DNA of 56,666 bases from Candidatus Aegiribacteria sp. (GCA_030613065.1 JAUWMQ010000004.1:1-56666); one strand, 5' to 3'; counted from the stretch's first letter, positions 4,783 through 47,358 are shown. The notes: generated from the sequence alone by a model not told the origin. Numbers and translations: made by a program.

Positions 4783-7050
4783 ATGCAGCGACTGAGGCTT
4801 GAGATAAGTGGAGCGGTTCAGGGCGTAGGTTTCAGACCCTTTGTATACCGTCTGGCTCATCGCTATGGTCTGGCCGGGTGGGTATCCAACACATCGAAGG
4901 GTGTGGTTGTTGAAGTGGATGGGGATCCCGAAATTCTTGCGAAGTTCGCAGAAGCTCTTCTGAAAGAAAAACCATCGCTATCCATCGTACAGAACATTCG
5001 CAGTAAATACCTTCTTGCAGCAGGATACTCGAGCTTTAAGATTCTCAAGAGTACCGGGGGAAAGAGGGAGGCATTCATCCTTCCGGATCTGGCCACCTGC
5101 CTGGAATGCTCGCTTGAGATACTTGACCCTGAGAACAGGAGGTATCGATATCCATTCACGAACTGCACCAACTGCGGTCCGAGATATTCAATAATCAATG
5201 CAATTCCGTACGACAGGCCTTCAACGACAATGTCCAGATTCAGAATGTGCAACAAATGCAGGAATGAGTACGAAGATCCGTATGACAGAAGATTCCATGC
5301 CCAGCCCAATGCCTGCCCTGAATGCGGCCCTCATCTTGAACTCTGGGATTCCTCAGGCGTTACCCTGGCAAAGAGGGATGATGCTCTGAGAAGAGCCTCG
5401 GATGAGATACTTGAAGGGAAAATACTTGCGGTTAAAGGGCTTGGCGGCTTCCATCTCATTACCCTTGCCAGCTCAGATGAAGCTGTCCGAACACTCCGTT
5501 CCCGCAAGGGAAGGAAGATGAAGCCCTTTACGCTTATGTCTCCATCGATTTCTCAGGTCTCCGAATTCTGTATGCTATCCTCCGAGGAAAGAGAATCTCT
5601 TCAGTCACCCCGGTCGCCCATCGTTCTTCTCAAAAAGCGCGATAAACAGAATTCGTCTCTCATCATCTCGGAACTGGTTTCCCCATCCAACCCTGAATTT
5701 GGAGTAATGCTGCCCTATACACCGCTTCATATTCTGCTCATGATGGAGATAGGAGAGCCTGTAATCGCCACAAGCGGAAACCTCAGTGATGAGCCAATCT
5801 GCACCGATGAAATTGATGCCCTTCACAGACTGAAAGACATAGCGGATTATTTTCTCGTTCATAACCGCCCAATAGCTCGTCATGTTGATGATTCAATTGT
5901 CAGGATTTTCAAAGAGCGGGAAATGGTACTGCGAAGGGCAAGGGGCTATGCACCGCTCCCTTTGAGTATGGACTTGGAGGCTGAATCCGTTTTCGCCACA
6001 GGAGGGCACCTGAAGAATACCCTGGCCCTCTCAATTGGGAGGAACGTCTTTACAAGTCAGCATATCGGAGATCTGGAGACGACACAGGCCCTCAGGGCTT
6101 TCGATGATGTCTGGAACAGTATTGAAACGTTGTACAACGCGCATCCGGATATTATCGCCTACGACATGCATCCGGACTATATCTCATCTGCACGGGCAAG
6201 AGAATCTCAGATCAGGGGTATTCCAGTTCAGCATCACATTGCACATGTCTATTCCTGCATGCTGGACAGTGGAGTCAGACCACCTCTGCTAGGTGTTTCC
6301 TGGGATGGAACCGGTTACGGTACCGATGGTACAGTGTGGGGGGGTGAATTCTTTCATATTACCGGTGGAACTGTGAAAAGAATTGCTCATCTGAGGCGCT
6401 TCCCTCTGCCCGGCGGAGACAGAGCTGCAGCGGAACCCAGAAGGTCGGCTCTCGGCCTTCTTTCGGAGCTTTATGATGATCCGGTGAAGCACCTTCCCCC
6501 TGACACATTTTCCAGGGAGGAGTCTGATGCCATGCAGAAAATGATATCGTCGAAGCTTAATTCCCCTCTTACCTCAAGTGCGGGAAGGCTGTTTGATGCC
6601 GTTGCATCGATCCTAGATATTCATCAGACTACAGAGTTCGAGGGGCAGGCGGCGATGGCTCTTGAGCACGCAATCGGGAATCGGGAGACTCGGGAATCCT
6701 ATCCCGTTGAAATTATCGAACACCCGTGCGAACCAATGGTAATCGACTGGGCACCACTTATCGAAGGTGTTATCATGGATGCTTCAGAAGGGGTGGATAG
6801 AGGCATCATTTCTGCGAAATTCCACAATACCATGGCAGAAGGGATTGCCGCAGTAGCTGATAGAGCTGGAGAGCGAAAAGTTGCCCTCAGCGGCGGTTGT
6901 TTTCAGAACGTTTATCTTCTGCAGAGGGTTCTTGATATACTCGAAAACAATGGTTATGAACCGTTTATCCACAGGAGCCTTCCTCCAAACGACGGAGGTA
7001 TTGCTCCGGGGCAGGTAATGGCAGCACTACTGATTAATTCCGAAAAATGA
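4783..7050 (+). CDS. hypF: Carbamoyltransferase HypF
   Basis: Acylphosphatase domain (GAVQGVGFRPF), zinc fingers (CTNCGPR, CPECGP), KGLGGFHL, QHHIAH, PNDGGIAPGQ. Confidence 0.97.
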   Translation: MQRLRLEISGAVQGVGFRPFVYRLAHRYGLAGWVSNTSKGVVVEVDGDPEILAKFAEALLKEKPSLSIVQNIRSKYLLAAGYSSFKILKSTGGKREAFILPDLATCLECSLEILDPENRRYRYPFTNCTNCGPRYSIINAIPYDRPSTTMSRFRMCNKCRNEYEDPYDRRFHAQPNACPECGPHLELWDSSGVTLAKRDDALRRASDEILEGKILAVKGLGGFHLITLASSDEAVRTLRSRKGRKMKPFTLMSPSISQVSEFCMLSSEERESLQSPRSPIVLLKKRDKQNSSLIISELVSPSNPEFGVMLPYTPLHILLMMEIGEPVIATSGNLSDEPICTDEIDALHRLKDIADYFLVHNRPIARHVDDSIVRIFKEREMVLRRARGYAPLPLSMDLEAESVFATGGHLKNTLALSIGRNVFTSQHIGDLETTQALRAFDDVWNSIETLYNAHPDIIAYDMHPDYISSARARESQIRGIPVQHHIAHVYSCMLDSGVRPPLLGVSWDGTGYGTDGTVWGGEFFHITGGTVKRIAHLRRFPLPGGDRAAAEPRRSALGLLSELYDDPVKHLPPDTFSREESDAMQKMISSKLNSPLTSSAGRLFDAVASILDIHQTTEFEGQAAMALEHAIGNRETRESYPVEIIEHPCEPMVIDWAPLIEGVIMDASEGVDRGIISAKFHNTMAEGIAAVADRAGERKVALSGGCFQNVYLLQRVLDILENNGYEPFIHRSLPPNDGGIAPGQVMAALLINSEK

Positions 7051-7063
7051 CAGGAGTATACTG

Positions 7064-7330
7064 ATGTGTCTGGGAGTACCCGGGAAGATCGAGGAGATAT
7101 CTGGGAATGATGATCCTGTATTCGTTACAGGCAAGGTCAATTTCGGAGGTGTACTGAGGGAGGTCAGCCTTGCCGGCATAAAAGACGCGCATGTTGGTGA
7201 CTGGGTGATAGTGCATGCCGGTTTTGCACTCAACAAACTGAATGAGGAAGAGGCTTCGGAAGTGTTTGAGTACCTGAGACAGATTTCCGAATTCGGCAGG
7301 GCCGAGCTTGAGGATTCAGACGACACCTGA
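7064..7330 (+). CDS. hypC: Hydrogenase assembly chaperone HypC
   Basis: MCLGVPGKI N-terminus, VGDWVIVHAGFA. Confidence 0.97.
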   Translation: MCLGVPGKIEEISGNDDPVFVTGKVNFGGVLREVSLAGIKDAHVGDWVIVHAGFALNKLNEEEASEVFEYLRQISEFGRAELEDSDDT

Positions 7331-7355
7331 GCCCGGAAAGAAGAGGTGAAAAAGG

Positions 7356-8450
7356 TTGAAGTACGTTTCGGAATATCGTGAGAGAGAATCGGCGCTGAAG
7401 TATGCCGGGCTTATCGGAAAAATGGTCACAAAGGACTGGAGTATAATGGAGGTCTGTGGCGGGCAGACTCATTCCATTGTAAAATACGGTATTGATCAGC
7501 TTCTGCCTGATTCCGTAACTCTTATACACGGGCCGGGATGCCCTGTATGTGTTACTCCCATTGAACTTATCGATCAGGCTGCTGAAATCGCCGGGTTTGA
7601 AAACGTTATCTTCTGTTCATTCGGTGATATGCTGCGGGTTCCGGGAAGCTGCAGTGACCTGCTGAGGGTCAAGGCATCCGGTGGGGATGTGAGAATGGTT
7701 TACTCCCCTATTGATGCTATACAAATAGCTGCAGGTAATCCCGACAAGGAAATAGTATTCTTCGCAGTGGGTTTCGAAACCACTGCCCCTGTCACAGCCG
7801 CTGCCGTGCTTCAGGCTGAACAGCTTGGCCTGGATAACTTCTCAATGCTTGTATCCCATGTACTTGTCCCACCCGCAATCAAGACTGTTTTATCAGGCGA
7901 GGATTGTGCTATCCAGGGATTTCTTGCTGCCGGGCACGTCTGTTCCGTAATGGGATATACCGAATACGAACCGATTGCGGAAAAGTACGGTGTACCGATT
8001 GTTGTAACCGGTTTTGAACCCCTTGATATTCTTGAGGGTGTTCACATGTGTCTGAAACAGCTTGAACAGGGCAGGACGGAAGTGGAAAACCAATACCTGC
8101 GTGCCGTTTCCAGGGAAGGAAACAGGCCTGCTATTGAACTTATGAGAAGTGTTTTCGAGATAACAGACCGCAAGTGGCGGGGAATAGGCAGAATCCCCGA
8201 CAGCGGGTTCATGCTCAGGGAGCAGTTCTCAAAGTTCGATGCAGGAAAGAAATTCAAAGTCAGCAGCCATGAAGTTGATGAACCTGCGATCTGCATATCC
8301 GGTGAGGTTCTCAGAGGTAATAAAAAACCTTTCGAATGTGTTGCCTTTGGAGAAGAATGCACTCCTGAACACCCACTTGGAGCACCTATGGTCTCGTCTG
8401 AAGGAGCGTGCGCAGCCTATTACCGATACAGACTTGCCAGGAAGAAATAA
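7356..8450 (+). CDS. hypD: Hydrogenase formation protein HypD
   Basis: [25 protein letters not shown], [17 protein letters not shown]. TTG start. Confidence 0.97.
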
Positions 8451-9505
8451 TGAATGACACCAGAATAACTGATATGATATGCCCGATTCCCCTCTCGGAT
8501 TACCCTGAAATTACTATGGCGCATGGTGGTGGTGGAAGGCTGATGAACGATCTTATCGACAGGGTCATCCTGAAGGCGTTCTCGAATCCCATTCTTGATT
8601 CGAGGCATGACGGTGCCGTTTTAGAGGCAGGGAAGGGAAAGCTGGCATTCGCAACAGATTCGCATGTCATTACTCCGTTGTTCTTTCCCGGTGGCGATAT
8701 AGGCACTCTTTCCGTATACGGAACCGTTAATGATCTGGCCATGTGCGGAGCAGATGCCAGATGGCTCAGCGCCGGTTTCATTATAGAAGAAGGTTTTTCT
8801 ATGGAGACCCTCTGGAGGGTTGTTGTTTCTATGGCTGAAGCATCCATGAAAACGGGCGTGTCGATAGTTACCGGAGATACAAAGGTGGTGGATAAAGGCA
8901 AGGGAGACGGTATCTATATCAATACCGCTGGGATAGGCATCATTCCGGCTGGGATTGAGATCTCTCCGTCAAGAGTTAGAGAAGGTGACGCGGTAGTTCT
9001 CAGCGGTGATATTGGCAGACATGGTATAGCTATAATGGCTATTCGTGAAGGGATCAGGTTTGAGAGTACAATCCGCAGCGACCTGGCTCCACTCAATTCC
9101 ATTACAGGAGACCTCCTGAGGGAGGGGCTTGATATACACTGCATGAGGGATCTTACAAGAGGAGGCCTTGCCAGCGGGTTGAATGAGATAGCTTCTATGA
9201 CCGATTGCTCCATCAGGATACAGGAGAGTCTGATCCCTGTTCATGATGAAGTTCTGGGCGCATGTGAGATACTTGGTTTTGATCCACTTTACGTAGCAAA
9301 TGAGGGTAGATTCGTTGTCATCCTTCCACGGGAAAACGGCGAAAGAGCTGTGGAAATTCTGAGAGGGCATGATATAGGACGTCAGGCTGAGATAATAGGT
9401 TTCGTTGAGAAACCTTCTTATGCTGACGTATTGATGATCAGCAGTATCGGTTCAGAGAGAATCATCGATATGATGAGCGGTGAACAGCTGCCCAGGATCT
9501 GCTGA
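8450..9505 (+). CDS. hypE: Carbamoyl dehydratase HypE
   Basis: [22 protein letters not shown]-terminal LPRIC. ATG at 8450 overlaps the hypD TAA. Confidence 0.97.
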
Positions 9506-9532: not shown

Positions 9533-10741
9533 TCATTCCGGAACGTACCCCTTAACCTTGACTACTTCCTTTGGAATCCTGAGGGCCGGTCTTATCAGAG
9601 GCCCTTCATCTGCTGGACAGATGTGAATATCAAAGCCGAAGATACTGCCCTTTCCCGGTTCACTGATAATGTAGACCCTTCCACCGTGCATGTCGATTAT
9701 CCTTTTGACTATTGAAAGCCCCAGACCTATTCCACCGACTTTCTGACCCGAAACATCGTTATCCTTGATCCTTACGAATTCCCTGAAAAGCTTCTTCTGA
9801 TTCTCTTCCGAAATACCGATACCGTTATCCTCCACTTCCAGAGAAACCACAGATTTGTCCCGGGTGCTGCTGCGGACAACGATACTGCCTTTCTCGGGAG
9901 TGTATTTGATAGCGTTTGTAACGAGATTTGTGATTACCTCACGGATAAGCCGTTCAACGCCTCCCACAGGAGGCAGATTATCTTCAAGGTTACATGTCAG
10001 TGTTTGTTTCCTGTTATGAGCCAGATCCTGATTTGCGCTGACAACGTTGCTGATGAGTCCATTGAGGTCAATCATTTTTGCCTGTTTCTTTATCTGGGAT
10101 GGATCCTCAAGCTGGGCGAAAAGCTGAAAATCCCGCAGAAAAGATGCTGCTTCGTCAAGTCTGGCATGCATTCTTGTAACCAGATGCTCCTGCTTCTCTG
10201 TGAGAGAATCACCGAGAAGGGTCTGAAGGCTGTGAAGCAGCATGGTAGTCGCAGAAACTGGAGACTTCATATCATGTATGGCGATATGGAGAAACGCCTT
10301 TCTGAGCTTGGCGAATTCCCTGAGTGAGGAATTTGCTTTTCTGAGCCTTTCACTGCGTTCCCGCAGAGCTCTGTGCGTCTTCATCAGCTCAATACTGAGC
10401 TCTCCGATGACAAAGGCAACTATCATAAAGAACAGAACTCGGATAATATCCGCCCAGAGGGGGCTTCCGGAATTGGAAATGGAGCTGAGAACAAGCACAT
10501 CCAGCCCCAGTATCATGGCAACAAAAATAGCTTTCCTGCCCCACCAGAAACCGGCGAAAATAATGGGTATGTATGCGAAATGAGAGTACCCGATACTCTC
10601 CCGACGATCAAGATGGAAGTAAGCGGTGATTACTATAAAAGCAATCGAAAGGACACATATGATAACGAATCTGTTAATAGAGCTTGGAACACTGTCCTGC
10701 ATGATTCCAGAATGCGGTAATCTGTTCTTATCTTCGGTCAT
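9533..10741 (-). CDS. Membrane-bound sensor histidine kinase (HisKA + HATPase_c)
   Basis: About 4 N-terminal hydrophobic segments; H box HDMKSP, N box NLVTNAIKYT, G1 VEDNGIGI, G2 GIGLGLSIV. Confidence 0.9.
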   Translation of the reverse strand: MTEDKNRLPHSGIMQDSVPSSINRFVIICVLSIAFIVITAYFHLDRRESIGYSHFAYIPIIFAGFWWGRKAIFVAMILGLDVLVLSSISNSGSPLWADIIRVLFFMIVAFVIGELSIELMKTHRALRERSERLRKANSSLREFAKLRKAFLHIAIHDMKSPVSATTMLLHSLQTLLGDSLTEKQEHLVTRMHARLDEAASFLRDFQLFAQLEDPSQIKKQAKMIDLNGLISNVVSANQDLAHNRKQTLTCNLEDNLPPVGGVERLIREVITNLVTNAIKYTPEKGSIVVRSSTRDKSVVSLEVEDNGIGISEENQKKLFREFVRIKDNDVSGQKVGGIGLGLSIVKRIIDMHGGRVYIISEPGKGSIFGFDIHICPADEGPLIRPALRIPKEVVKVKGYVPE

Positions 10742-10815
10742 ATTCTGTCACTTTCGAATGCATAGGTTAGTGTTTGAATGAAGTAAGATAGTCTGAAATG
10801 GGTGTACTTGTCCAG

Positions 10816-12189
10816 TTAACGAATTCTCCATAAAGCGACGGAATCTTCTCCGCATATTACGTTTCTGTCGCTTCCGAAACCTGTGAGGAATTCCAATGAA
10901 TTACCGGCTTCCGATATCAGGTCTGAGTACTGTTCGGGAAATGCAAGAAGGTAATCCGCCCGTTCCGAAATCCATTGCCATCCTTCTCTGGAGGATCCCG
11001 GGAGCCTTTCCGCCGTAACAAGGCCGTCGAGATCCAGTATCTCCATATCGGTTATCCATTTCACAGCTCCGATATCAGCCGCTGCTACAGTCTGTGCAGG
11101 CGATGCCACAGTGGATATGTACTGTGCCGGTCTTACATCTATGGAATAAACGTCATACGAAGCGTCTGCTCTTCTACCCGCAAAGATGATCAGGCCCGGC
11201 AGCATGGAAACGGCAAGAATAAATACATTCAATTTCCATCGCCGGAGCCCTCTGAGCCAGTGTCCGGCAGCAAGTACAGCTGCTGTAAGAGCAGGTACAT
11301 AATACCGCATCTGGAAGAAGCTGTTAGGCTGAAGATATATGGATACAGCGAAAAGCAGCAGTGGAATGAGTGCCATCGAGGTTTCAAGCCGCCTTTTCCC
11401 CTTGCCTTTCAGCAATGCTGTGATTGAAACAGCTGCCGCGAAAAGCAGAAGTGGCGATGTTATCAATAAACCCTTCAATAGACCGGGAAGACCTGCATAG
11501 GCTGAAGCGAACCATGACACCGGATTCTTGGCATAGAATGTTGAAGGGAGGAGGAGGTCCATAGAATGGATGTTCCAGAACACCCATAGAAGACCGATGA
11601 ACACTGATGGAGCTGCAAGACGAAGTATATTTGCGGGAGTTCTATTTTTCATGGAGACCGCAAGGGGTATAACGAGGATCGCCAGTTCGGGCCGAACAAG
11701 GAATGCTCCCGAGAGAATGAATGATGAAACCGGTATTCCGCTTCCATCTCTTACGCATCTCCATACCGCGACTACAGCCAGGCATGATAATGCTGTTTCC
11801 ATCCCGCTGGAAGCATGGAAAAAGAAGGGTCCCGTCATCAGAAGGAGTATCGCCGTGAAGGGAGGAAGCAGGAAAAGAGCTGCGCCTGCCGCGATCAGAG
11901 AAAGCAGCATCAGTACGATTGGTGCAATGGTGGTTCCAGCCAGAGAAGACAGAGATGAGGGCAGCAGCCAAAGAGGACTTGTGAACCCCGAAGAGGGTTC
12001 TGCACCATTGAAACAGAGGGGTGCAGAGGAGATGAGGCTTCTTCCGTAAACCAGGTGTATATAGGTGTCATCCATGGGAGGGATACTGCTGACGTACCCT
12101 GAAAGTACAACCAGCAGAATTACTGCTGCGACCAGGAGCATAGGAACTTTAAACTGAACGGATATCTTTCTTCTCGGGGGCTTCTTCAT
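10816..12189 (-). CDS. Polytopic membrane protein, GT-C glycosyltransferase-like
   Basis: Acidic DDTYIH motif after the first TM, then many hydrophobic segments, GMET and VRPE motifs typical of GT-C/AftD-like proteins. Confidence 0.5.
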   Translation of the reverse strand: MKKPPRRKISVQFKVPMLLVAAVILLVVLSGYVSSIPPMDDTYIHLVYGRSLISSAPLCFNGAEPSSGFTSPLWLLPSSLSSLAGTTIAPIVLMLLSLIAAGAALFLLPPFTAILLLMTGPFFFHASSGMETALSCLAVVAVWRCVRDGSGIPVSSFILSGAFLVRPELAILVIPLAVSMKNRTPANILRLAAPSVFIGLLWVFWNIHSMDLLLPSTFYAKNPVSWFASAYAGLPGLLKGLLITSPLLLFAAAVSITALLKGKGKRRLETSMALIPLLLFAVSIYLQPNSFFQMRYYVPALTAAVLAAGHWLRGLRRWKLNVFILAVSMLPGLIIFAGRRADASYDVYSIDVRPAQYISTVASPAQTVAAADIGAVKWITDMEILDLDGLVTAERLPGSSREGWQWISERADYLLAFPEQYSDLISEAGNSLEFLTGFGSDRNVICGEDSVALWRIR

Positions 12190-12324
12190 AACGATTTTAT
12201 CACCCGTACCGCGCTCACCGTCAAGGGCAGCGGGAAATGATTTTGCAGTGGACAGAGACCGGGTGTCGTGTTAAAATTGTGGCATGTGTTCAACGATTAG
12301 TAAACTACGCGGGAGACTGCTTAC

Positions 12325-12696
12325 TTGAGAATAATCGGTGTTGGAATAGATATAGTTGATATCGGAATTTTCAGAAGCCGTCTTGATGATGGCATGGTAA
12401 GTGAACTATTCCTCCCTGGGGAAATCGAATACTGTTCATCCCGGGCTCGCCCTTGGGAAAGCTATGCAGCAAGATTTGCCGCGAAGGAAGCATCCTTCAA
12501 GGCTCTGGGCGCCGGATTGTCCCAAGGCTTGCGCTGGAAAAATGTCGAAATAATCAAAGAGGAATCCGGTGCAGTATCCGTTCAGTTAAATGGGCGAGCG
12601 CTGGAACAGGCAAGAGATAAACAGGTAAAGCAGGTACGCCTTTCCATCAGCCATAGCGGAGATAATGCTATAGCCGTTGTCACTATGGAGGGCTGA
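12325..12696 (+). CDS. acpS: Holo-[acyl-carrier-protein] synthase
   Basis: GVGIDIV, AARFAAKEASFKALG, LSISHS. TTG start after GGGAG. Confidence 0.95.
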   Translation: MRIIGVGIDIVDIGIFRSRLDDGMVSELFLPGEIEYCSSRARPWESYAARFAAKEASFKALGAGLSQGLRWKNVEIIKEESGAVSVQLNGRALEQARDKQVKQVRLSISHSGDNAIAVVTMEG

Positions 12697-12725
12697 TAGA
12701 GAATCGAAGGATTGGAGGAGTCAGC

Positions 12726-14474
12726 TTGAGTAATATCGGATCTTATAACGAGAGAATGAAGAAATTCGACTGGGATATCGCAAAGTATATTCTTGACTGG
12801 AAGGAAGGAGAACTCCTTAATATTGGAGCCATCTGTTCGGACAGAATATGCGGCAGAGGTGATGGAAATAAAACAGCACTTATATGGGAAGGTTTCGGGG
12901 ATAAGAGTGCCAGATATTCTTTCGACGATCTCAGGGTCTATTCAAACGGCTTCGCTGAATTCCTCAGCGAGCAGGGAATCGAACCAGGAGACAGAGTCTG
13001 CATCTTCATGGACAAGATACCAAGCCTTTATTTCTCTTTTCTTGGTGTTCTCAAACTGGGTGCAGTCGCGCAACCGCTTTTCTCGGCATTTGGTGACGAA
13101 TCCCTGGAAGTAAGACTTGCCAGTGCTGGAACAAGGGCAATTCTTACGACTCAAAAACATGTTAGGAAAGTCCGGAAAATCAAAGATAGACTGCCGGAGC
13201 TTGAGAGGATAATAGTTGTAGAGGGGAATCCCGATAAACTTAAGGAAGGCGAGCTTTTCTTCGATGTGGAGAACAGTCCAAGAGTGGAAGAGTTCGATGT
13301 CTATCATTCAACGCCTGAAACCCCTTCAGTTCTTCATTACACATCAGGAACAACAGGTCAGCCGAAGGGTGCCCTTCATGTTCACAATTCCGTCTGGGGC
13401 CAGGCACTTACAACAAGCTGGGTGCTTGATCTGCAGGATGATGATATCTACTGGTGTACGGCGGATCCCGGATGGGTTACCGGGACCAGCTACGGTATTA
13501 TCGGACCCTGGGCACTGGGAGCTACACAGTGTGTTCTCGATTCAGGTTTTACATCTTCTCGGTGGTACAAGTTCATTCAGGATAACAGGATAACCGTATG
13601 GTATTCAGCCCCTACCGCCATCAGAGCGCTTATGAAAGATGGTGATGAGCTGGTCAGTACATTCGATCTCGCATCACTTCGGCACCTCGCTTCAGTGGGT
13701 GAGCCACTGAATGCTGAGGCAGTCATATGGAGCGGGGAAGTATTCGACGGACTCAAATTTCATGATACCTTCTGGCAGACGGAAACCGGTTCCATAATGA
13801 TTACGAACTATCCTGGAATGGAGATACGACCCGGTTCGATGGGTAAACCTTTTCCCGGCATCAGAGCCGCTGTTCTGGACCTTTCCACCCTAAAACCTTT
13901 AGATGAGCACGGAAAAGTTGGATTAATAGCTTTCAGTCCCGGATGGCCATCAATGTTCAGGCAGTACTGGAACCAGCCTGATGTTTACAGAAGCAAGTTC
14001 GTTGGAGCCTCCGAGAATGCAATGCCTGATGAGCTCAGGACCAATCCCGACCTCTGGTACGTCTCAGGTGACAGGGCAAGCATTGATAAGGATGGATACT
14101 TCTGGTTCGTTGGCAGGGACGATGATGTTATAAACACCGGAGGACACCTTGTAGGGCCTTTCGAAATCGAATCAGCCCTTGTTGAACATGAAGCCATTGC
14201 CGAGGCAGCTGCGATCGGAAAACCGGACAAAGTCAACATGGAGGTTGTAAAGGCATTCGTTACATTAAAACCTGGTTTCGAGCCCTCGGATGAGCTTGAA
14301 CTGAATATCATGAATTTCATCAGAAAAAGGCTTTCTCCGCTGGCGATGCCCCAGGAGATCGAGTATCGTGATAAACTGCCCAAGACACGTTCAGGCAAGA
14401 TCGTCAGAAGGTATCTCAGAGCAATTGAATGGGGAGAAGAGGCTGGCGATCTGTCATCCCTTTCCGACGAATAG
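12726..14474 (+). CDS. acsA: Acetate--CoA ligase-like adenylating enzyme (AMP-forming)
   Basis: YTSGTTGQPKG, GWVTG, SVGEP, DTFWQTETG, GRDDDVI, LPKTRSGKIVRR. TTG start after GGAGGAG. Confidence 0.85.
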   Translation: MSNIGSYNERMKKFDWDIAKYILDWKEGELLNIGAICSDRICGRGDGNKTALIWEGFGDKSARYSFDDLRVYSNGFAEFLSEQGIEPGDRVCIFMDKIPSLYFSFLGVLKLGAVAQPLFSAFGDESLEVRLASAGTRAILTTQKHVRKVRKIKDRLPELERIIVVEGNPDKLKEGELFFDVENSPRVEEFDVYHSTPETPSVLHYTSGTTGQPKGALHVHNSVWGQALTTSWVLDLQDDDIYWCTADPGWVTGTSYGIIGPWALGATQCVLDSGFTSSRWYKFIQDNRITVWYSAPTAIRALMKDGDELVSTFDLASLRHLASVGEPLNAEAVIWSGEVFDGLKFHDTFWQTETGSIMITNYPGMEIRPGSMGKPFPGIRAAVLDLSTLKPLDEHGKVGLIAFSPGWPSMFRQYWNQPDVYRSKFVGASENAMPDELRTNPDLWYVSGDRASIDKDGYFWFVGRDDDVINTGGHLVGPFEIESALVEHEAIAEAAAIGKPDKVNMEVVKAFVTLKPGFEPSDELELNIMNFIRKRLSPLAMPQEIEYRDKLPKTRSGKIVRRYLRAIEWGEEAGDLSSLSDE

Positions 14475-14493
14475 ATTACAGAAAGGAGCTGAA

Positions 14494-14742
14494 ATGGATG
14501 AGATGAAGAAAGTAATTCTTGAGTATATAGTTGATGAGTACCTTGATGAAGATGATGAGGATGAAGTTTCCTTTAATACTCCGCTGATCTCTTCAGGAAT
14601 TGTAGACAGTTTCTCAATGGTTTCCCTGAAAAGATTCCTTGAGACTAAATACAGCATTAAACTCTCCGATGAAGAAGCTACACCGGAAGCTTTTGATACA
14701 GTGAATTCAATCTGCAGGCTGGTTGATAAACATCTGGGATAA
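14494..14742 (+). CDS. Acyl carrier protein
   Basis: 82 aa, highly acidic, GIVDSF phosphopantetheine motif. AAGGAG SD before ATG 14494. Confidence 0.9.
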   Translation: MDEMKKVILEYIVDEYLDEDDEDEVSFNTPLISSGIVDSFSMVSLKRFLETKYSIKLSDEEATPEAFDTVNSICRLVDKHLG

Positions 14743-14758
14743 ATGGGGGTAAGATCTT

Positions 14759-16006
14759 ATGGCATTTTCAGACAGTACGAGAGGCCTGTTTACGGATGAG
14801 ATAGAGAAAATCAAGGAAGGTGGTCTCTTCAAGGAAAAAAGATTCATCTGCTCCGCACAGGACGCGGAAATTGAAGTTGAGTATCCCGAAGGTGCATCCC
14901 ATGAGAAAGTTCTCAATTTCTGCGCGAATAATTACCTGGGACTCTCAAGTCATCCCGACGTGATCAAGGCCGCCCACGAAGGTCTCGATACTCGAGGCTA
15001 CGGAATGAGTTCCGTCAGGTTCATTTGCGGTACACAGGACATACACAGGGAACTTCAGGATAAGGTGTCCATTTTTCTGGGTATGGAAGATACGCTTCTA
15101 TTCCCCTCCTGCATGGATGCTAATTCCGGTGTTTTTGAAGCAATACTGGGGCAGGAGGATGTGATAATTGCCGACAGGCTTATCCATGCATCCCTCGTTG
15201 ACGGCATCCGTCTCTGTTCAGCAGAGTACGATACTTTCAAGCATATGGATATGAAGCATCTGAAGAAAAAACTTGAGCTTCATCAGGACAAAAGAACCAG
15301 GCTTGTGGTAACGGACGGCGTGTTCTCCATGGACGGTGATCTTGCACCCCTGGACGAAATGGTTGACCTTTGCAACCGGTACGATGCCATGCTTCTGGTT
15401 GACGATTCCCATGCATCTGGATTCATAGGAAAGACCGGCAGAGGAACCCACGAACATTTCGGTGTTATCGACGGTGTTGATCTTGTCACAACCACTTTCG
15501 GAAAGGGACTGGGAGGAGCTTCAGGAGGCTGCGTATCCGGCCGGAGGGAGCTGATAGAACTCTGCCGTCAGAAGGCAAGACCATACCTGTTCAGTAACTC
15601 ACTTGCTCCTCCAATTGTTAATGCTTCCATCAAGGTCATCGACCTTGTATCAAGTTCAACTGAGCGACGTGACAAGCTGGAATGGAATACGAAGTACTTC
15701 CGTGAAAAAATGAAGGATGCAGGACTGGATATGCGTTCCGGCGAGACACCAATCGTTCCTGTGATGCTGTACAATGCCAAGCTGGCGAACGATATGGCAA
15801 GGGATATGTATGCCGAGGGAATTTATGTAATAGGATTCTGTTTCCCGGTCGTTCCCGCTGGAAAAGCCAGAATACGTGTTCAGCTTTCTGCTGCCCACGA
15901 GAAGGCACACCTTGATAAATGCGTAGAAGCTTTCAAAAAGGTTGGGAAGAAGTACGGAATACTCGGGCTTGGTAAGAGCGAGATTATCGATAAATACGGT
16001 ATGTAG
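14759..16006 (+). CDS. PLP-dependent alpha-oxoamine synthase, Kbl-like (divergent paralogue)
   Basis: NFCANNYLGL, SSVRFICGT, DGVFSMDG, DDSHASG, TFGKGLGG (PLP Lys), RPYLFSN. Differs from canonical Kbl at FPSCMDAN and DRLIHAS. Confidence 0.85.
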   Translation: MAFSDSTRGLFTDEIEKIKEGGLFKEKRFICSAQDAEIEVEYPEGASHEKVLNFCANNYLGLSSHPDVIKAAHEGLDTRGYGMSSVRFICGTQDIHRELQDKVSIFLGMEDTLLFPSCMDANSGVFEAILGQEDVIIADRLIHASLVDGIRLCSAEYDTFKHMDMKHLKKKLELHQDKRTRLVVTDGVFSMDGDLAPLDEMVDLCNRYDAMLLVDDSHASGFIGKTGRGTHEHFGVIDGVDLVTTTFGKGLGGASGGCVSGRRELIELCRQKARPYLFSNSLAPPIVNASIKVIDLVSSSTERRDKLEWNTKYFREKMKDAGLDMRSGETPIVPVMLYNAKLANDMARDMYAEGIYVIGFCFPVVPAGKARIRVQLSAAHEKAHLDKCVEAFKKVGKKYGILGLGKSEIIDKYGM

Positions 16007-16227: not shown

Positions 16228-16530
16228 ATGGACCATGGACCGACTACAGAATATCATGAGTGCGATGAATTACTGAAGTACAAGCAGAAGGCAGGCTTGC
16301 AGTTATTCTTCATTTACTCTGGCATTTACGGCATATTCGTTCTACTGAACACCCTTTTCCCGAGCATGATGGAGTCCGTCATATTCTTCGGCCTGAACCT
16401 CGCCATCGTCTATGGATTCGGTCTAATCATTACCGCCATTCTCCTCGGGCTGGTCTACAACAACCGGTGCACCAGGATGGAGAAGCGTCTTGATACTGGC
16501 GGCATAAAGACTGAAGGAGGCAAGGAATGA
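16228..16530 (+). CDS. DUF485 (YjcH-like) small membrane protein
   Basis: 100 aa, two TM segments, GLNLAIVYGFG...YNNRC. ATGA overlap with the downstream SSS transporter, as in yjcH-actP. Confidence 0.8.
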   Translation: MDHGPTTEYHECDELLKYKQKAGLQLFFIYSGIYGIFVLLNTLFPSMMESVIFFGLNLAIVYGFGLIITAILLGLVYNNRCTRMEKRLDTGGIKTEGGKE

Positions 16531-18446
16531 TCTACACGGCTTCTCCTTTTGCAGTCGGTATCTTCTTCGCGGTCGTAGCGGCGGTATTGGGCATCTCCTT
16601 TTACTTCGGCAGGAAGACCACTTCTGCCAAGGGATACTTCGCTGCAGGCGGAAATATCCACTGGTCTGTGAACGGCATCGCTTTCGCGGGTGATTACCTC
16701 TCCGCTGCCTCTTTCCTTGGCATCTGCGGCATGATAGCCTTCTCAGGTTTCGATGGATTCCTTTACTCCATCGGCTACCTGGCGGGGTGGGTTGTTGCCC
16801 TCTTCGTGGTCGCCGAGCCGCTGAAGCGTCTGGGCAAGTTTACTTTTGCTGACGCACTGGACTCCAAATTCGGCTCCAGGGGTATCCGCTTAATGGCTGC
16901 CATCAGCACGCTCGTCGTCTCAATCTTCTACCTCATACCCCAGATGGTCGGCGCAGGTGCTCTGGTTACTCCGCTTCTCGGACTCCCTCACTGGGTTGGT
17001 GTCACTCTTGTGGGCGGTATCGTCATCTTCATAGTGACTACTGCCGGTATGAAGTCCACAACTTACGTGCAGTTTCTCAAGGGAGCTCTCCTGATGGTAT
17101 TCTCCCTCCTTCTAGTATTTCTGGTGATCGGCAAGGGGATCAATTTAGAACCCTCTGAGAATTACCACGATTTCATCACACTGCAGGCGGAGCTGACCGA
17201 TGACTCAGTCACATCCGTAAGCGATCCGGCCTATACCATTGTGGGGGAATACTCGAAGAACGACCTGCGGTTTGTGAAGCTGGAAAAAGACGGCATCAGC
17301 AACTGGTGGAAACTGGAGACAGAGACCTGCACACTCACCGAAGCTCTCACCATCGTCACCCTGACGGATGGGGCCGTCCTCTACAACGGTGCCCCCAGGG
17401 AGGAACAGCTCTTTTTTCCCGTGGGCAGCATGCACGAAATAACTGTCGACGGTGAGCAGGTTGAAAGTGTCAGCGGCCTGAACGCTATCAGCTTCCTGGC
17501 TGTAATCCAGGAGAGCGAGGTAGTCAGGTTCATTGCCGACGTCTTCACATCGGGTGATGAACGGGTCCGCATCTGGTACCAGGAGGTCACCCCCGGCAAC
17601 GAGATACTCAGCCCCGGCCTTAAGTTCCACATAGATGAAGGCTCTACCTTCGCCGACAAATTGAATTTCATATCCCTTATGCTCGCACTCTTCTTCGGTA
17701 CCGCAGCTCTGCCGCATGTACTCATCAGGTACTACACGGTTTCAACACCAGCCGCCGCAAGGAAGTCCACTATTGTGGCCATATCGGCCATTGGTTTCTT
17801 CTACATCCTTACCCTCTATATGGGCCTTGGCGCCATGATAAGCGGGGTATTGGACGTGGAGAGCTCAAATATGTCCGCTCCACTCCTCTCACAGTCGTTC
17901 GGTACCCTTATGTTCGCTTGCATCTCCGCCATCGCCTTCGCGACCGTATTGGGAACCGTAAGCGGCCTGATTGTAGCATCATCGGGCGCAGTCGCCCATG
18001 ATTTCATAGACAGATTCCTGGGTAAGAAACTCACCGACCACAAGAAGGTCATCGCCGGCAAATTCGCTGCCGTGGGGACAGGCATCATCGCGATACTGCT
18101 GGGCATCGCGTTTAAGGGAATGAATGTAGCTTACCTGGTGGGACTCGCTTTCGCCATTGCAGCTTCCGCCAACCTTCCCTCAATACTGATGCTGCTCTTC
18201 TGGAAGAAGACCACCTCGAAGGGAATAGCTGCTTCCATAGCAACTGGTATTGTATTGGCAGTCGGCCTTATCCTTCTTTCACCGAGCATGTTCGTCAGGT
18301 ATGGGCTGGAAGCTTCGGCGGCACCGCTCCCCCTGGACAATCCTGGAATCATATCAATCCCGCTTAGTTTTGCTGTGCTCATCATCGTATCTCTGATGAC
18401 CGGGAAGAAAGACCAGCCACAGGAAGAGAAAGCATTGATCAGCTGA
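16527..18446 (+). CDS. actP: Sodium/cation:solute symporter, ActP (acetate permease)-like, with a large soluble insertion
   Basis: AFAGDYLSAASFLG, YLIPQMVGAG, GMKSTTYVQF, GTAALPHVLIRYYTV, AASANLP. About 170-aa hydrophilic insert between TM blocks. Confidence 0.75.
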   Translation: MIYTASPFAVGIFFAVVAAVLGISFYFGRKTTSAKGYFAAGGNIHWSVNGIAFAGDYLSAASFLGICGMIAFSGFDGFLYSIGYLAGWVVALFVVAEPLKRLGKFTFADALDSKFGSRGIRLMAAISTLVVSIFYLIPQMVGAGALVTPLLGLPHWVGVTLVGGIVIFIVTTAGMKSTTYVQFLKGALLMVFSLLLVFLVIGKGINLEPSENYHDFITLQAELTDDSVTSVSDPAYTIVGEYSKNDLRFVKLEKDGISNWWKLETETCTLTEALTIVTLTDGAVLYNGAPREEQLFFPVGSMHEITVDGEQVESVSGLNAISFLAVIQESEVVRFIADVFTSGDERVRIWYQEVTPGNEILSPGLKFHIDEGSTFADKLNFISLMLALFFGTAALPHVLIRYYTVSTPAAARKSTIVAISAIGFFYILTLYMGLGAMISGVLDVESSNMSAPLLSQSFGTLMFACISAIAFATVLGTVSGLIVASSGAVAHDFIDRFLGKKLTDHKKVIAGKFAAVGTGIIAILLGIAFKGMNVAYLVGLAFAIAASANLPSILMLLFWKKTTSKGIAASIATGIVLAVGLILLSPSMFVRYGLEASAAPLPLDNPGIISIPLSFAVLIIVSLMTGKKDQPQEEKALIS

Positions 18447-24334: not shown

Positions 24335-24817
24335 GTGGGACAGATAAATCGTCTTCATGGTGTTGCGTACCTTCTGGGAGCCCTTGCACATGCATCTGAA
24401 AAGAATCTGGGTAAGAGCAGTCACTCGATATGCGTGCTGGCCGGTATGAAATTCGGCAAGGAGGCAGTTGAAGAAGTGGAACAGACAGATGACCCCGAGA
24501 AAGCTGTTGCACTGCTCAGGGAAGCACTTGAAAAACGGGGAGTAGTCTGGAATTTTGAACCTTTCAAAGGTGAGCGTAACGAGCTTATTGAAAAACGGGA
24601 CGGTGCGGAGGTTATGAGGCTTGTTTTTCGAACCTGTATGGTCAGAAACGCTCTCTTCCGTTATGCACATGAACAGAAGGAATCCATGTGTTACATGGCT
24701 CATGGAGTGTTCGCTGGAGCCATGGAGAAGGTTATGCCCGGTAAGAAAGTTAACCTTGAGATTCTGCATGCAGGTCCCAATGCCTGTCTGAAGGAAATGA
24801 TTCTGGAGGATGAATGA
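24335..24817 (+). CDS. V4R/hydrocarbon-binding-like protein
   Basis: 160 aa, three spaced Cys (RTCMVR, SMCYMAHGVFAG, NACL) in the V4R arrangement. GTG start after GGAGG. Confidence 0.65.
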   Translation: MGQINRLHGVAYLLGALAHASEKNLGKSSHSICVLAGMKFGKEAVEEVEQTDDPEKAVALLREALEKRGVVWNFEPFKGERNELIEKRDGAEVMRLVFRTCMVRNALFRYAHEQKESMCYMAHGVFAGAMEKVMPGKKVNLEILHAGPNACLKEMILEDE

Positions 24818-25728: not shown

Positions 25729-25766
25729 ACCAGAGTCAAATCGAAGCAGGACTATGAGGTTAAACC

Positions 25767-32224: not shown

Positions 32225-32237
32225 GTCCGGATCATTC

Positions 32238-33614: not shown

Positions 33615-33624
33615 TCTAGCAGGA

Positions 33625-37922: not shown

Positions 37923-39125
37923 ATGTATACTGAACATTTTCAGGAGATATTGGTATCCAAACTTGAAAAGGCCGAGAAGAGCGGTATGCTCAAGAGGGAA
38001 AGAGTTATTACATCCAGACAGGGAACCAGAGTAGAGGTTGAGCATTCCGGGGAAGTACTCAATTTCTGCGCAAACAACTACCTGGGGTTTTCAGGTGATC
38101 AGAGGCTTGTTGAAAGGGCCTGCGAGATACTCGAAGCAAGGGGCTTCGGCCTGTCATCGGTCCGTTTCATATGTGGTACTCAGGATATTCATAAGGAACT
38201 TGAGAAGAAAATCTCTGATTTTCTTCTCAAGGACGACACAATACTGTATTCCAGTTGCTTCGATGCCAATGGGGGGCTTTTTGAGCCTCTGCTGACTGAT
38301 GCTGATGCAATTATTTCCGATCAGCTGAACCATGCTTCTATTATCGATGGCTTAAGACTATGCAAGGCGAAAAGATATCGATACAGCCATGTTGACCTGG
38401 AGGATCTTGAAGCCGTACTGATCCATGCACGCAGCGCAAGGATCAAGGCTATCGTGACCGACGGAGTTTTCTCAATGGATGGAGAAATAGCTCCACTCCC
38501 TGGAATTTGCGATCTTGCAGAGAAATACGGAGCGCTGCTTATTGTTGATGACTCCCATGCAACGGGTTTCATTGGAGAGAATGGCAGAGGAACTCTTGAA
38601 TATCACGGAGTATCCGAGAGAGTGGATATTGTAACGTCAACTTTCGGAAAAGCCCTTGGAGGTGCTTCAGGAGGGTTCACTACAGGGCCGGCGGAAGTTA
38701 TCGAGATGCTCAGACAGCGATCCAGGCCATACCTGTTCTCGAACACACTCGCTCCGGTAGTTGCTGGAACGACAATTGCCGTTATTGACCTTATAGAGAA
38801 ATCCAGTGATGAAAGGGACAGGCTCAGGGATAATCAGAGACGCTTCAGAAGGAAAATGACTGAAGCCGGATTCAGGATCATCAAGGGTGATCATCCTATC
38901 GTACCTGTCCTTTTTGGTCATCTGCCGGACGATGCAGCACTCGCGCAGAGATTCGCCGATGAACTTCTCAAGAAAGGCATTTATGCCATAGGATTCTTCT
39001 ATCCAGTAGTTCCCCGTGGGGAGTCAAGGATAAGGATTCAGATTTCGGCAGCTCATACAACCCAGCAGGTGGATATCTGCGTTGAAGTGTTCAAAGATGT
39101 TGGTAAAATACTTGGAGTGCTCTAA
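37923..39125 (+). CDS. kbl: Glycine C-acetyltransferase (2-amino-3-ketobutyrate CoA ligase)
   Basis: NFCANNYLG, YSSCFDANGG, SDQLNHASIIDG, DDSHATG, TFGKALGGASGG, RPYLFSN. Confidence 0.93.
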   Translation: MYTEHFQEILVSKLEKAEKSGMLKRERVITSRQGTRVEVEHSGEVLNFCANNYLGFSGDQRLVERACEILEARGFGLSSVRFICGTQDIHKELEKKISDFLLKDDTILYSSCFDANGGLFEPLLTDADAIISDQLNHASIIDGLRLCKAKRYRYSHVDLEDLEAVLIHARSARIKAIVTDGVFSMDGEIAPLPGICDLAEKYGALLIVDDSHATGFIGENGRGTLEYHGVSERVDIVTSTFGKALGGASGGFTTGPAEVIEMLRQRSRPYLFSNTLAPVVAGTTIAVIDLIEKSSDERDRLRDNQRRFRRKMTEAGFRIIKGDHPIVPVLFGHLPDDAALAQRFADELLKKGIYAIGFFYPVVPRGESRIRIQISAAHTTQQVDICVEVFKDVGKILGVL

Positions 39126-46370: not shown

Positions 46371-46395
46371 ACACTTGCCTCTCCGAAAGGATGAC

Positions 46396-47358
46396 ATGAC
46401 CCGAATGATTAACAGAATCCTTGTTACAGGTGCCCTTGGTCAGATAGGTTCCGAACTTACCGCCGAACTTCGAAAAAGATATGGCAGGGACAATGTAGTC
46501 GCGTCGGATATTAAATTCGACGAGAGCAGTCCCGTTGTAAATGCAGGTCCTTGGGCATTGCTTGATGTTACAGACGCAGAAGCCGTTGAAAAGAGGATAA
46601 TTGATAACAGGATCGACTCGATATTTCACATGGCCGCAATACTCTCGGCCACCGGGGAGGAAAATCCCCAGCTCTGCTGGAAAGTCAACATGGATGGAAC
46701 CATGAACATCCTTGAGGCGGCCAGGAAGAACGACCTGTCAAGGGTGATAATACCCAGCTCCATAGCTGCCTTCGGCCCTGAGACTCCAAGGGAAAACACA
46801 CCCCAGGAGACGATACTGAGGCCCAAGACCATGTACGGGGTAACCAAGGTTTCGGGGGAACTGCTCTGCGATTATTATGTTCGAAAATTCAATCTTGATG
46901 TAAGAGGTCTGCGCTATCCGGGGATAATCTCCTCGGAAACCCCTCCAGGAGGGGGAACCACCGATTACGCAGTAGATATCTATTACAAAGCTATTGAAGA
47001 GGGAAGGTACACCTGTTTCGTTAAAAAGGATACGATGCTGCCGATGATGTATATGCCGGACTGCATCAAGGCCACTCTGGATCTTGCTGAAGCCGATTTT
47101 AACGATCTTGTTCATTACAGTGATTTCAACGTAGGAGCGCTTTCGGTAAGCGCCGGAGATATTACCGAAAGCATAAGGAAGCATATACCGGATTTCGAGG
47201 TTGATTACGTACCTGATCACCGCCAGGCGATAGCCGATACCTGGCCAATGGGAGTGGACGATTCTGCTGCCCGAGAGGAATGGGGCTGGGAACCTGACTG
47301 GGATCTGGATGCAATGACCGCGGATATGCTGGAGAAGCTCAGGGCAAAACTCTTATAA
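46396..47358 (+). CDS. tdh: L-threonine 3-dehydrogenase (SDR/epimerase type)
   Basis: GALGQIG, SATGE, PSSIAAFG, MYGVTK, PGGGTTDYAV, MMYMPD. Confidence 0.88.
   Translation: MTRMINRILVTGALGQIGSELTAELRKRYGRDNVVASDIKFDESSPVVNAGPWALLDVTDAEAVEKRIIDNRIDSIFHMAAILSATGEENPQLCWKVNMDGTMNILEAARKNDLSRVIIPSSIAAFGPETPRENTPQETILRPKTMYGVTKVSGELLCDYYVRKFNLDVRGLRYPGIISSETPPGGGTTDYAVDIYYKAIEEGRYTCFVKKDTMLPMMYMPDCIKATLDLAEADFNDLVHYSDFNVGALSVSAGDITESIRKHIPDFEVDYVPDHRQAIADTWPMGVDDSAAREEWGWEPDWDLDAMTADMLEKLRAKLL

Follow-up and report, generated by a model that had tools for sequence, protein, structure and literature searches.

ATP-dependent acetate:SH-acyl carrier protein (ACP) ligases are known from citrate lyase (CitC) and malonate decarboxylase (MadH). 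Two further described systems bear on the locus reported here. In the pathway formed by L-threonine 3-dehydrogenase (Tdh) and Kbl, encoded as kbl-tdh in Escherichia coli and as tdh-kbl in Cupriavidus necator (PMC9814548), canonical Kbl works with free CoA and is not partnered by a carrier, a ligase or a phosphopantetheinyl transferase. In Caulobacter and other Rhodobacteria, the ANL-family ligase AasR acylates only its cognate specialised carrier AcpR and not CoA, and serine palmitoyltransferase (SPT) prefers acyl-AcpR (PMC9386255). AcpS makes the holo form in that system, and its authors suggest that the acid is steered away from CoA-dependent catabolism (PMC9386255). Here we analyse a four-gene module at positions 12325-16006 of a 56,666-nucleotide stretch of DNA from Candidatus Aegiribacteria sp. 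(GCA_030613065.1 JAUWMQ010000004.1:1-56666), the whole of which is referred to below as the window. The module encodes an AcpS-type phosphopantetheinyl transferase (acpS), an AcsA-type ligase, a small acidic carrier protein and a Kbl-derived alpha-oxoamine synthase (AOS), which we call AOS'.

Our preferred reading, to which we assign a probability of about 0.5, is that the module carries out a carrier-protein-dependent Kbl step in the anabolic direction, from acetate and glycine to threonine. That it forms an ACP-dependent system joining acetyl groups, glycine and 2-amino-3-oxobutanoate, whether it runs in the anabolic direction or in reverse, we regard as likely. A first-pass annotation of the window had proposed a dedicated ACP loaded with a C2 unit and a Kbl-type condensation with glycine. 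Linkage, co-evolution, conservation of the ligase pocket and the synthase cavity, and the Tdh and transporter context described below now lend strong comparative support to the core of this proposal, in which the acetyl loading of the ACP is predicted from the family, pocket and context of the ligase.

A module conserved across uncultured anaerobic lineages

The four genes follow one another on the + strand, separated by 29, 19 and 16 nt (Table 1), and their open reading frames (ORFs) are as first annotated. Two protein-guided scans and one motif scan (back-translated FPSCMDAN) of contigs sampled at one genome per species returned 273 loci. All of these belong to metagenome-assembled genomes (MAGs) or single-amplified genomes, and no cultured host was found among them. 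Linkage was counted over 121 non-redundant AOS' genes, the denominators being the cases with enough flank. The carrier gene lay directly upstream of AOS' in 112/115 cases, and a ligase was present beside AOS' in 94/101. In the 68 loci that offer 5 kb or more upstream and 3 kb or more downstream of AOS' (well-flanked loci), acpS was linked in 47, at a site that varied between upstream, downstream and beside canonical kbl. Median intergenic gaps across loci were 16-41 nt.

A survey of the cluster across genomes, as proposed in the first-pass annotation, found the same gene order in well over 150 distinct genomes, a recurrence that places the arrangement far beyond chance. An independent, unordered sample drawn by motif from further phyla had the same architecture. 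Because the pairwise identities of the other three proteins co-vary with those of AOS' (Spearman coefficients of 0.90 for the ligase, 0.65 for the ACP and 0.66 for AcpS), the four genes are taken to be inherited as a unit.

The module occurs in Fermentibacteria, Zixibacteria, Aminicenantes, other Acidobacteriota, Gemmatimonadota, Bacteroidales, Ignavibacteriales, Calditrichaeota, Cloacimonadota and KSB1, and likewise in Marinimicrobia, Delongbacteria, Krumholzibacteria, Eisenbacteria, WOR-3, Elusimicrobiota, Planctomycetota, Bipolaricaulota and others. These lineages are anaerobic and come from sediment, digesters and soil. Public records label AOS' 'glycine C-acetyltransferase' and the carrier 'acyl carrier protein'. 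Profile searches found no curated family describing the module, and a literature search on Kbl/Tdh with ACP, acetyl-ACP or acetyl-CoA synthetase, and on threonine synthesis by reverse Tdh/Kbl, returned no description of it.

Two kinds of departure from this architecture were seen. In three loci, from Eisenbacteria and a Cloacimonadales MAG (L019, L026 and L089), AOS' carries the full signature and neither an ACP nor a ligase gene lies in the fetched flank; these partners may sit at another locus, or AOS' may work alone. In three other loci the ligase-ACP junction was interrupted (L016, 3741-5627; L021, 2721-3374; L029, 2038-3205), and the module thus tolerates insertions at this site. On manual reading the inserts looked mobile or defence-like (NYN-like, anti-sigma/STAS-like), and they were rejected as pathway partners.

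The window's relatives (Candidatus Fermentibacteria/Aegiribacteria) are 87-95% identical to it, and 98% of its sampled words were present in one cold-seep metagenome run. Four sediment metatranscriptomes hold contigs of relatives that are ~88-95% identical. A 1424-nt contig from a relative of ~89% identity spans 14189-15606, comprising the 3' end of the ligase gene, the ACP gene and AOS'; further RNA contigs cover 14369-14783 and 14600-14771, and others pass the AOS' stop towards the DUF485 gene that follows. The module is therefore transcribed in situ with at least ligase, ACP and AOS' on one RNA, as judged from assembled contigs of relatives with possible DNA carry-over. A promoter and terminator scan gave counts at or below shuffle expectation; it marked a promoter-like site at 12249-12277, placed no terminator in the interval from AOS' to the DUF485 gene, and is treated as uninformative.

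AOS' forms a separate clade within the Kbl family

AOS' passed the Kbl equivalog models (TIGR01822, 572.8 bits versus a cut-off of 493; NF005394, 569.9 versus 460), and among solved structures it is closest to E. coli Kbl (1fc4, 455 bits), with the SulA structure 7u7h reaching only 201 bits. None of the SPT, BioF, ALAS and CqsA models was passed; against three SPT models AOS' scored 329, 284 and 247 bits versus cut-offs of 640, 500 and 670, respectively. In a neighbour-joining tree AOS' was monophyletic (43/43 representatives) and sat inside Kbl, with a median identity of 77% versus 58% among the canonical Kbl proteins of the same loci.

The window also contains a canonical kbl and a tdh, both separate from the module and both found where the first-pass annotation had placed them. 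AOS' is 50% identical to this canonical Kbl, and the motif changes noted earlier are borne out: AOS' reads FPSCMDAN and DRLIHAS where the canonical protein reads YSSCFDAN and DQLNHAS. When 136 AOS' sequences were compared with 52 canonical Kbl sequences (among them E. coli Kbl and the product of the second kbl in the window), a signature of P116, M119, R140, V/I142, D158, K161, H167, H/Y175, K178, C269 and A273 was present in 136/136. At positions 119, 142, 269 and 273, canonical Kbl has F/Y (52/52), N (52/52), L (51/52) and S (45/52), with S/A at 116, and the window's canonical kbl carries L269/S273. AOS' thus departs from Kbl at Kbl-invariant positions outside the substrate cavity (M119, V/I142, C269 and A273 in 136/136). 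It also has five residues inserted in its N-terminal part (V40-E41-x-P43-x-G45) and ends in a conserved tail of ~13 aa. Some of the changes adjoin the cofactor, pyridoxal 5'-phosphate (PLP): N142 to V/I lies beside the PLP-stacking His, F119 to M in the phosphate-binding SxF motif, and L269 is replaced by C.

Structures of the C. necator enzyme (CnKBL) define a cavity lined by N52, V81, H138, H215, L274, F275 and R370, and the catalytic residues S187 and K246 (PMC9814548). All nine residues are identical in 136/136 AOS' sequences (N57, V86, H143, S190, H218, K249, L277, F278 and R373), and the part of AOS' that holds glycine and 2-amino-3-oxobutanoate is therefore unchanged. The clade-fixed changes lie outside the CnKBL cavity and add basic residues (R140, K161, H167, H175, K178, R303 and K406). 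Together with the terminal additions, these residues would fit docking of a carrier with a net charge of -9, as would be expected if the acetyl donor had changed from CoA to an acidic carrier.

In Delongbacteria-type loci a Kbl with the canonical signature, encoded directly downstream of AOS', was the sister group of AOS' in the neighbour-joining tree (Table 1). AOS' may have originated by tandem duplication of kbl. In one locus (L047, 8090-8293) a short ORF 3' of AOS' contains a second copy of the conserved C-terminal tail (KVGAKYGILGLGKKVIIEMYGM) and looks like the remnant of a partial duplication.

The carrier protein, the ligase and AcpS

The carrier protein scored 20.6 bits against Pfam PF00550 (PP-binding), just under the gathering threshold of 20.8, and remained under the cut-off of every NCBIfam ACP model. 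The best of these was ACP_for_OlsHI (62.8 versus 130 bits). A link to OlsH and ornithine lipids was rejected, the score being less than half of the cut-off and no GH3-like gene lying nearby. An AlphaFold (AF2) model built from 32 sequences (pLDDT 91) displayed the helical bundle of carrier proteins, with an invariant Ser39 opening helix II (residues 39-53). Its top Foldseek matches were PigG, PltL, ACPs and DltC (TM 0.83-0.87, probability 1.0), which suggests that the carrier is closest to those loaded by stand-alone adenylating enzymes. The core LISxGIVDSFSMVSLKxFLExKYxI..PD..ATPEAFDTV is nearly invariant, and the proteins are ~70% identical across more than 15 phyla and strongly acidic (median net charge -9, pI 4.25). 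A family search at E <= 0.001 returned at least 8,000 candidates.

The ligase reached 725 bits against the acetate-CoA ligase model NF003313, a marginal miss of the curated AcsA cut-off of 729, and its best solved relative is the 572-aa Acs 9g79 (541 bits). The acetate-pocket motifs to which the first-pass annotation had drawn attention are present in the window as ADPGWVTGTSYG, ASVGEPLN and HDTFWQTETG. Across the 122 sequences of the ligase clade, conservation is at least 95% for WVTG, VGEP and WQTETG and for PKTRSGKI, the motif of the catalytic Lys. Alignment to Salmonella enterica Acs showed that V310/T311 (WVTG), V386 (VGEP), W414 (WQTETG), Lys609 and Arg584 are kept; we take the pocket and catalytic roles of these residues to be those established by the structures of the Gulick laboratory.

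Relative to S. enterica Acs and 9g79, the ligase clade has three fixed changes: R526 to L (GGHLV), V516 to D and R580 to M. The A8-loop Arg526, present in S. enterica Acs, 9g79 and 8rpk, is Leu in 122/122 clade members. It was considered and rejected as a marker of ACP versus CoA use: carrier-loading A-domains and DltA keep Arg at this position. The substitution is read here simply as a clade marker. A 14-aa insertion in the window's ligase is confined to the Fermentibacteria lineage among the 122 clade members and is ruled out as a family feature.

AcpS scored 64 bits against PF01648 (versus 25), 84 against TIGR00556 (cut-off 45) and 60.0 against TIGR00516 (59.8). From these profiles and its length of ~120 aa it appears to be an ordinary AcpS-type phosphopantetheinyl transferase.

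Neighbouring genes point to threonine and acetate

To describe the gene context, the neighbouring ORFs of 159 loci were clustered into families. In the 68 well-flanked loci the recurrent neighbours were a Zn-type Tdh of the E. coli type (20 loci), a short-chain dehydrogenase/reductase (SDR)-type Tdh (11) and canonical kbl (35). One or more of these neighbours occurred in 44/68 loci and either Tdh in 31/68. The string tdh-acpS-lig-ACP-AOS' (lig denoting the ligase gene) was found in Zixibacteria, Ignavibacteriales and Cloacimonadota, and the strings tdh-kbl-lig-ACP-AOS' or tdh-lig-ACP-AOS'-kbl in Bacteroidales. The recruitment of two non-homologous Tdh families is good evidence for 2-amino-3-oxobutanoate/threonine as the metabolic node. 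On the 3' side of AOS', DUF485 and ActP genes in Fermentibacteria are replaced by a SatP/YaaH-type acetate channel in several other phyla, and this non-homologous swap points to acetate. Downstream tailoring genes were not conserved in any of the neighbourhoods. Regex motifs for ThrC, ThrB and aspartokinase had no match in the 2.7 Mb of fetched loci, a result that is uninformative on whole genomes.

Assignments to SatP and to the Pat-like proteins described here were made by reading signature motifs manually. A Pat-like protein of ~890 aa (an NDP-forming acyl-CoA-synthetase domain followed by a C-terminal GNAT domain) and a porin-like protein recur, by eye, beside the module in Aminicenantes and Bacteroidales (L067, L117, L137, L145, L147, L151, L154-L156 and others). 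As the ligase keeps a PxxxxGK acetylation motif, lysine acetylation may control it.

In Zixibacteria and Ignavibacteriales, a protein with an N terminus resembling a bacterial microcompartment (BMC) shell domain and a Pro/Ala-rich tail is encoded, again by eye, directly upstream of tdh-acpS-lig-ACP-AOS' (L041, 1478-2215; L057; L059; L121; L125), accompanied in all of these except L059 by a sigma-54 activator with TPR repeats. These neighbours may hint at regulation, or at the sequestering of a reactive intermediate such as aminoacetone. In Aminicenantes a methylglyoxal synthase-like gene was seen two to three genes 5' of acpS, with uvrA-like and mntP-like genes between, all three assigned by eye (L127, L133, L136, L137, L141, L143 and L145). 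This is probably lineage synteny, and is noted here since aminoacetone and methylglyoxal are chemically linked.

A putative mechanism and its alternatives

In the mechanism that we propose, AcpS would prime the 82-aa carrier at Ser39, turning apo-carrier into holo-carrier, as expected from the family of AcpS, and acetate would be taken up by DUF485/ActP here and by SatP elsewhere. The AcsA-type ligase would adenylate acetate and move the acetyl group to the pantetheine thiol of the carrier, not to CoA, giving acetyl-S-ACP; its family, pocket and context all suggest this step. AOS' would then dock the acidic carrier and catalyse the reversible reaction acetyl-S-ACP + glycine <-> 2-amino-3-oxobutanoate + HS-ACP, as predicted from its active site and its obligate adjacency to the carrier gene. 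Tdh, judging from its context, would link 2-amino-3-oxobutanoate to L-threonine. Running in the anabolic direction, a private ACP pool charged by the conversion of ATP to AMP + PPi, and held apart from acetyl-CoA and CoA, could push the unfavourable Claisen condensation, and catabolism would be left to the canonical, CoA-dependent Kbl.

Threonine synthesis is the likeliest of the putative directional readings. We prefer it by analogy, as it would mirror the division between ACP-based synthesis and CoA-based degradation of fatty acids and the logic of AasR/AcpR/SPT, and the uptake-type transporter context supports it. A broader physiological role is tentative and rather doubtful: the module might provide ATP-driven synthesis of L-threonine (and of an isoleucine precursor) from external acetate and glycine, supplementing or replacing the aspartate/homoserine pathway in many uncultured anaerobic phyla.

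Several observations weigh against anabolic, ACP-dependent operation. Both AOS' and the ligase are near CoA-dependent families, the latter missing the AcsA cut-off by 4 bits, and nothing in the sequence proves the use of ACP rather than CoA. Because the ligase keeps the equivalent of S. enterica Acs R584 and basic residues at the R191 and R194 positions, it may use CoA. The gene string often includes canonical kbl as well; if this gene were co-expressed with an anabolic AOS', a futile shunt from acetyl-ACP via 2-amino-3-oxobutanoate to acetyl-CoA would result, which weakens the directional part of the proposal. The organisms that carry the module are fermentative anaerobes, which are usually acetate excreters. 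Finally, when the window and six loci were scanned with Rfam, no regulatory RNA that would point to glycine or threonine control was detected near the module.

The competitor that survives best, although we consider it unlikely, is operation in the catabolic direction. Tdh would oxidise threonine, AOS' would use holo-ACP to release glycine and acetyl-ACP, the ligase would run backward (acetyl-ACP + AMP + PPi -> acetate + ATP + holo-ACP), and acetate would leave through ActP or SatP. The anaerobic habit of the host lineages of sediment, digesters and soil is compatible with such a route, as is the frequent same-strand association with tdh and canonical kbl, normally a catabolic pair. Symporters are reversible, ATP-making reverse operation of an AMP-forming Acs has reportedly been seen in Syntrophus aciditrophicus, and the clade-fixed R526 to L change near the adenylate site could mean altered energetics. 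However, the replacement of CoA by a private carrier would have no evident purpose, because canonical Kbl and ordinary enzymes converting acetyl-CoA to acetate would suffice. ActP, SatP and the acs-yjcH-actP arrangement are classically uptake and scavenging devices, and the neighbourhoods show nothing that points to a supply of PPi.

An improbable alternative is that the preferred chemistry is right in outline and the product is different. 2-Amino-3-oxobutanoate could be decarboxylated to aminoacetone, leading to pyrazines, 1-amino-2-propanol or methylglyoxal, or another acyl or amino partner could be used; for example, glycolyl-ACP and glycine would lead to the 4-hydroxythreonine/PLP branch, and propionyl-ACP, or alanine or serine, to other products. 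Transport by ActP-family carriers extends to glycolate. Beside the cofactor, AOS' is distinct from all canonical Kbl proteins (N142 to V/I, F119 to M, L269 to C, S273 to A), a BMC-domain protein is encoded beside tdh in some Zixibacteria and Ignavibacteriales loci, and 2-amino-3-oxobutanoate is known to decarboxylate spontaneously to aminoacetone (PMC9814548). Against this, all seven CnKBL cavity residues that hold glycine or threonine are invariant in AOS', the ligase pocket is an acetate pocket, two linked Tdh types argue for the keto acid/threonine pair as the node, and tailoring genes are not conserved downstream.

We give little credence to the possibility that the locus is nothing special, combining an ordinary acetyl-CoA synthetase, a CoA-dependent Kbl isozyme, a housekeeping acpS and a passenger ACP. 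The plain names in the public records would suit it, as would the scores of AOS' above the Kbl cut-off and of the ligase 4 bits below that of AcsA, and acpS looks standard and is not part of the module in many Bacteroidales genomes. A passenger, however, would not stay between ligase and AOS' in 112/115 cases across more than 15 phyla at ~70% identity, and AOS' is a distinct clade with fixed differences that coexists with canonical kbl in the same genome and often at the same locus.

The lipid precursor entertained in the first-pass annotation, a sphingoid, sulfonolipid or similar aminoketone made from long-chain acyl-ACP, is very improbable: the ligase-ACP-AOS trio shares the architecture of AasR/AcpR/SPT (PMC9386255), and some Bacteroidota AOS enzymes are reported to use acyl-ACP (SulA, PMC9304779), but AOS' falls far below the SPT cut-offs and much closer to Kbl (455 bits) than to SulA (201 bits), the ligase keeps the Trp that closes an acetate-sized pocket, and reductase or acyltransferase genes are not conserved nearby.

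Features of the window

Table 1. Module genes and related features. Coordinates are those of the window unless a locus number (L) is given.
Feature	Coordinates	Strand	Basis or remark
acpS, AcpS-type 4'-phosphopantetheinyl transferase, 123 aa	12325..12696	+	First gene of the module
AcsA-type AMP-forming acetate ligase, putative acetate-[ACP] ligase, 582 aa	12726..14474	+	Profile and pocket residues
Acidic carrier protein, 82 aa, attachment Ser39 in VDSF	14494..14742	+	Profile and fold model; ATG at 14494 is the best start
AOS', Kbl-derived alpha-oxoamine synthase, putatively ACP-dependent, 415 aa	14759..16006	+	TIGR01822
DUF485 (YjcH-like) small membrane protein, ActP partner	16228..16530	+	PF04341, 38 bits
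ActP/MctC-type sodium:solute symporter (acetate/monocarboxylate permease)	16527..18446	+	PF00474; NF058657, 440 bits; NF006903 (ActP), 400 bits
Canonical (CoA-type) kbl paralogue	37923..39125	+	TIGR01822, 597.8 bits
SDR-type L-threonine 3-dehydrogenase	46396..47358	+	Solved TDH structures 7cgv, 2yy7 and 4yr9
Delongbacteria-type sister Kbl	L061 2666-3919		
Delongbacteria-type sister Kbl	L093 1964-3223		
Delongbacteria-type sister Kbl	L111 8288-9547		

The DUF485 gene begins 221 nt after the AOS' stop and its ORF overlaps that of the symporter by 4 nt; both NCBIfam scores of the symporter are under their respective cut-offs. The tdh ORF is readable over 46252-47358, and a start near 46396 is plausible because homology to solved SDR-type TDHs begins at about residue 51 of this ORF (E down to 4.8e-124). 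Divergently upstream of acpS, positions 9533-12189 (- strand) encode a histidine kinase (402 aa) and a 457-aa polytopic membrane protein, the latter having no Pfam or NCBIfam match. The pair is kept only within Fermentibacteria (L001, L004, L008, L010 and L011), and we therefore regard it as lineage synteny and not as part of the module.

Elsewhere in the window, a thiamine pyrophosphate (TPP) riboswitch (RF00059, 44188-44282, - strand, 58.7 bits versus a gathering threshold of 54.3) lies directly 5' of thiC (PF01964, 42882-44288, - strand). At its start the mechanically called thiC ORF overlaps the aptamer, and thiC probably begins further downstream. A SinI-type restriction endonuclease (154-906, + strand) faces a C5 cytosine methylase with a helix-turn-helix domain (950-2380, - strand); this pair was probably acquired, given that it lies in a low-GC stretch (0.38 versus ~0.47 elsewhere). 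The maturation genes hypF, hypD and hypE (4783-9505) and genes for the small and large subunits of a NiFe-hydrogenase (24814-27173) fit a fermentative, H2-cycling lifestyle. Two tandem genes for B12-binding radical-SAM proteins (479 and 471 aa, 32175-35040) follow a gene for a 1078-aa GGDEF-AAA-TPR protein (28988-32224).

Implications and relation to known systems

If the ACP-dependent reading is true, genes annotated as glycine C-acetyltransferase and acetyl-CoA synthetase would constitute an undescribed ACP-dependent branch of threonine, glycine and acetate metabolism. Metabolic reconstructions of dominant sediment, soil and digester lineages would change in their acetate assimilation, glycine sinks and calls of threonine auxotrophy. 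The AasR/AcpR principle of a private carrier that diverts an acid from the CoA pool would extend from lipids to a central amino-acid node, and alpha-oxoamine synthase enzymology would gain a natural Kbl scaffold for a protein-bound C2 thioester. Should the module serve threonine synthesis, it would be the first amino-acid case in which synthesis and degradation are separated between ACP and CoA.

The Tdh-Kbl pathway is the source of the closest homologues: AOS' belongs to the Kbl family and has an identical cavity, and the module is linked to Tdh and canonical Kbl. Unlike the enzymes of that pathway, AOS' forms a separate clade with at least 11 fixed substitutions, an N-terminal insertion and a C-terminal tail, and is nearly always paired with an ACP (112/115).

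The E. coli acetate-scavenging operon acs-yjcH-actP resembles the module in gene order, with an AMP-forming acetate ligase followed on the same strand by DUF485 and ActP-type symporter genes. This resemblance favours acetate uptake and activation. The module differs in that an ACP and a Kbl paralogue are inserted before the transporter genes, acpS lies upstream and the ligase carries the R526 to L change.

CitC and MadH similarly acetylate a protein-bound thiol, and the resulting acetyl-ACP takes part in C-C cleavage or formation in central metabolism. These systems differ in their 2'-(5''-phosphoribosyl)-3'-dephospho-CoA prosthetic group, in belonging to other carrier and ligase families (at least for CitC) and in having no PLP enzyme. 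The pairs PigG/PigI, PltL/PltF and DltC/DltA resemble the module in that small acidic carriers are encoded beside their ligases, and they include the best fold matches of the carrier (TM 0.83-0.87). In contrast to the putative acetyl carrier, PigG, PltL and DltC carry amino acids, for secondary metabolism or the D-alanylation of teichoic acids, and share 17-29% sequence identity with it.

The nearest experimentally established parallel is AasR/AcpR/SPT, in which an ANL ligase is likewise found together with a specialised ACP and an AOS enzyme, a co-occurrence that the module conserves (112/115 and 94/101). That system handles long-chain fatty acids and serine, and its decarboxylative SPT makes a lipid product, whereas the module has an AcsA-type acetate pocket, a Kbl-type glycine cavity and a context of amino-acid and acetate genes, and its enzymes belong to different subfamilies. 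AOS' is not an SPT-type synthase by its profile scores, and the module therefore probably works like AasR/AcpR/SPT without being a member of it.

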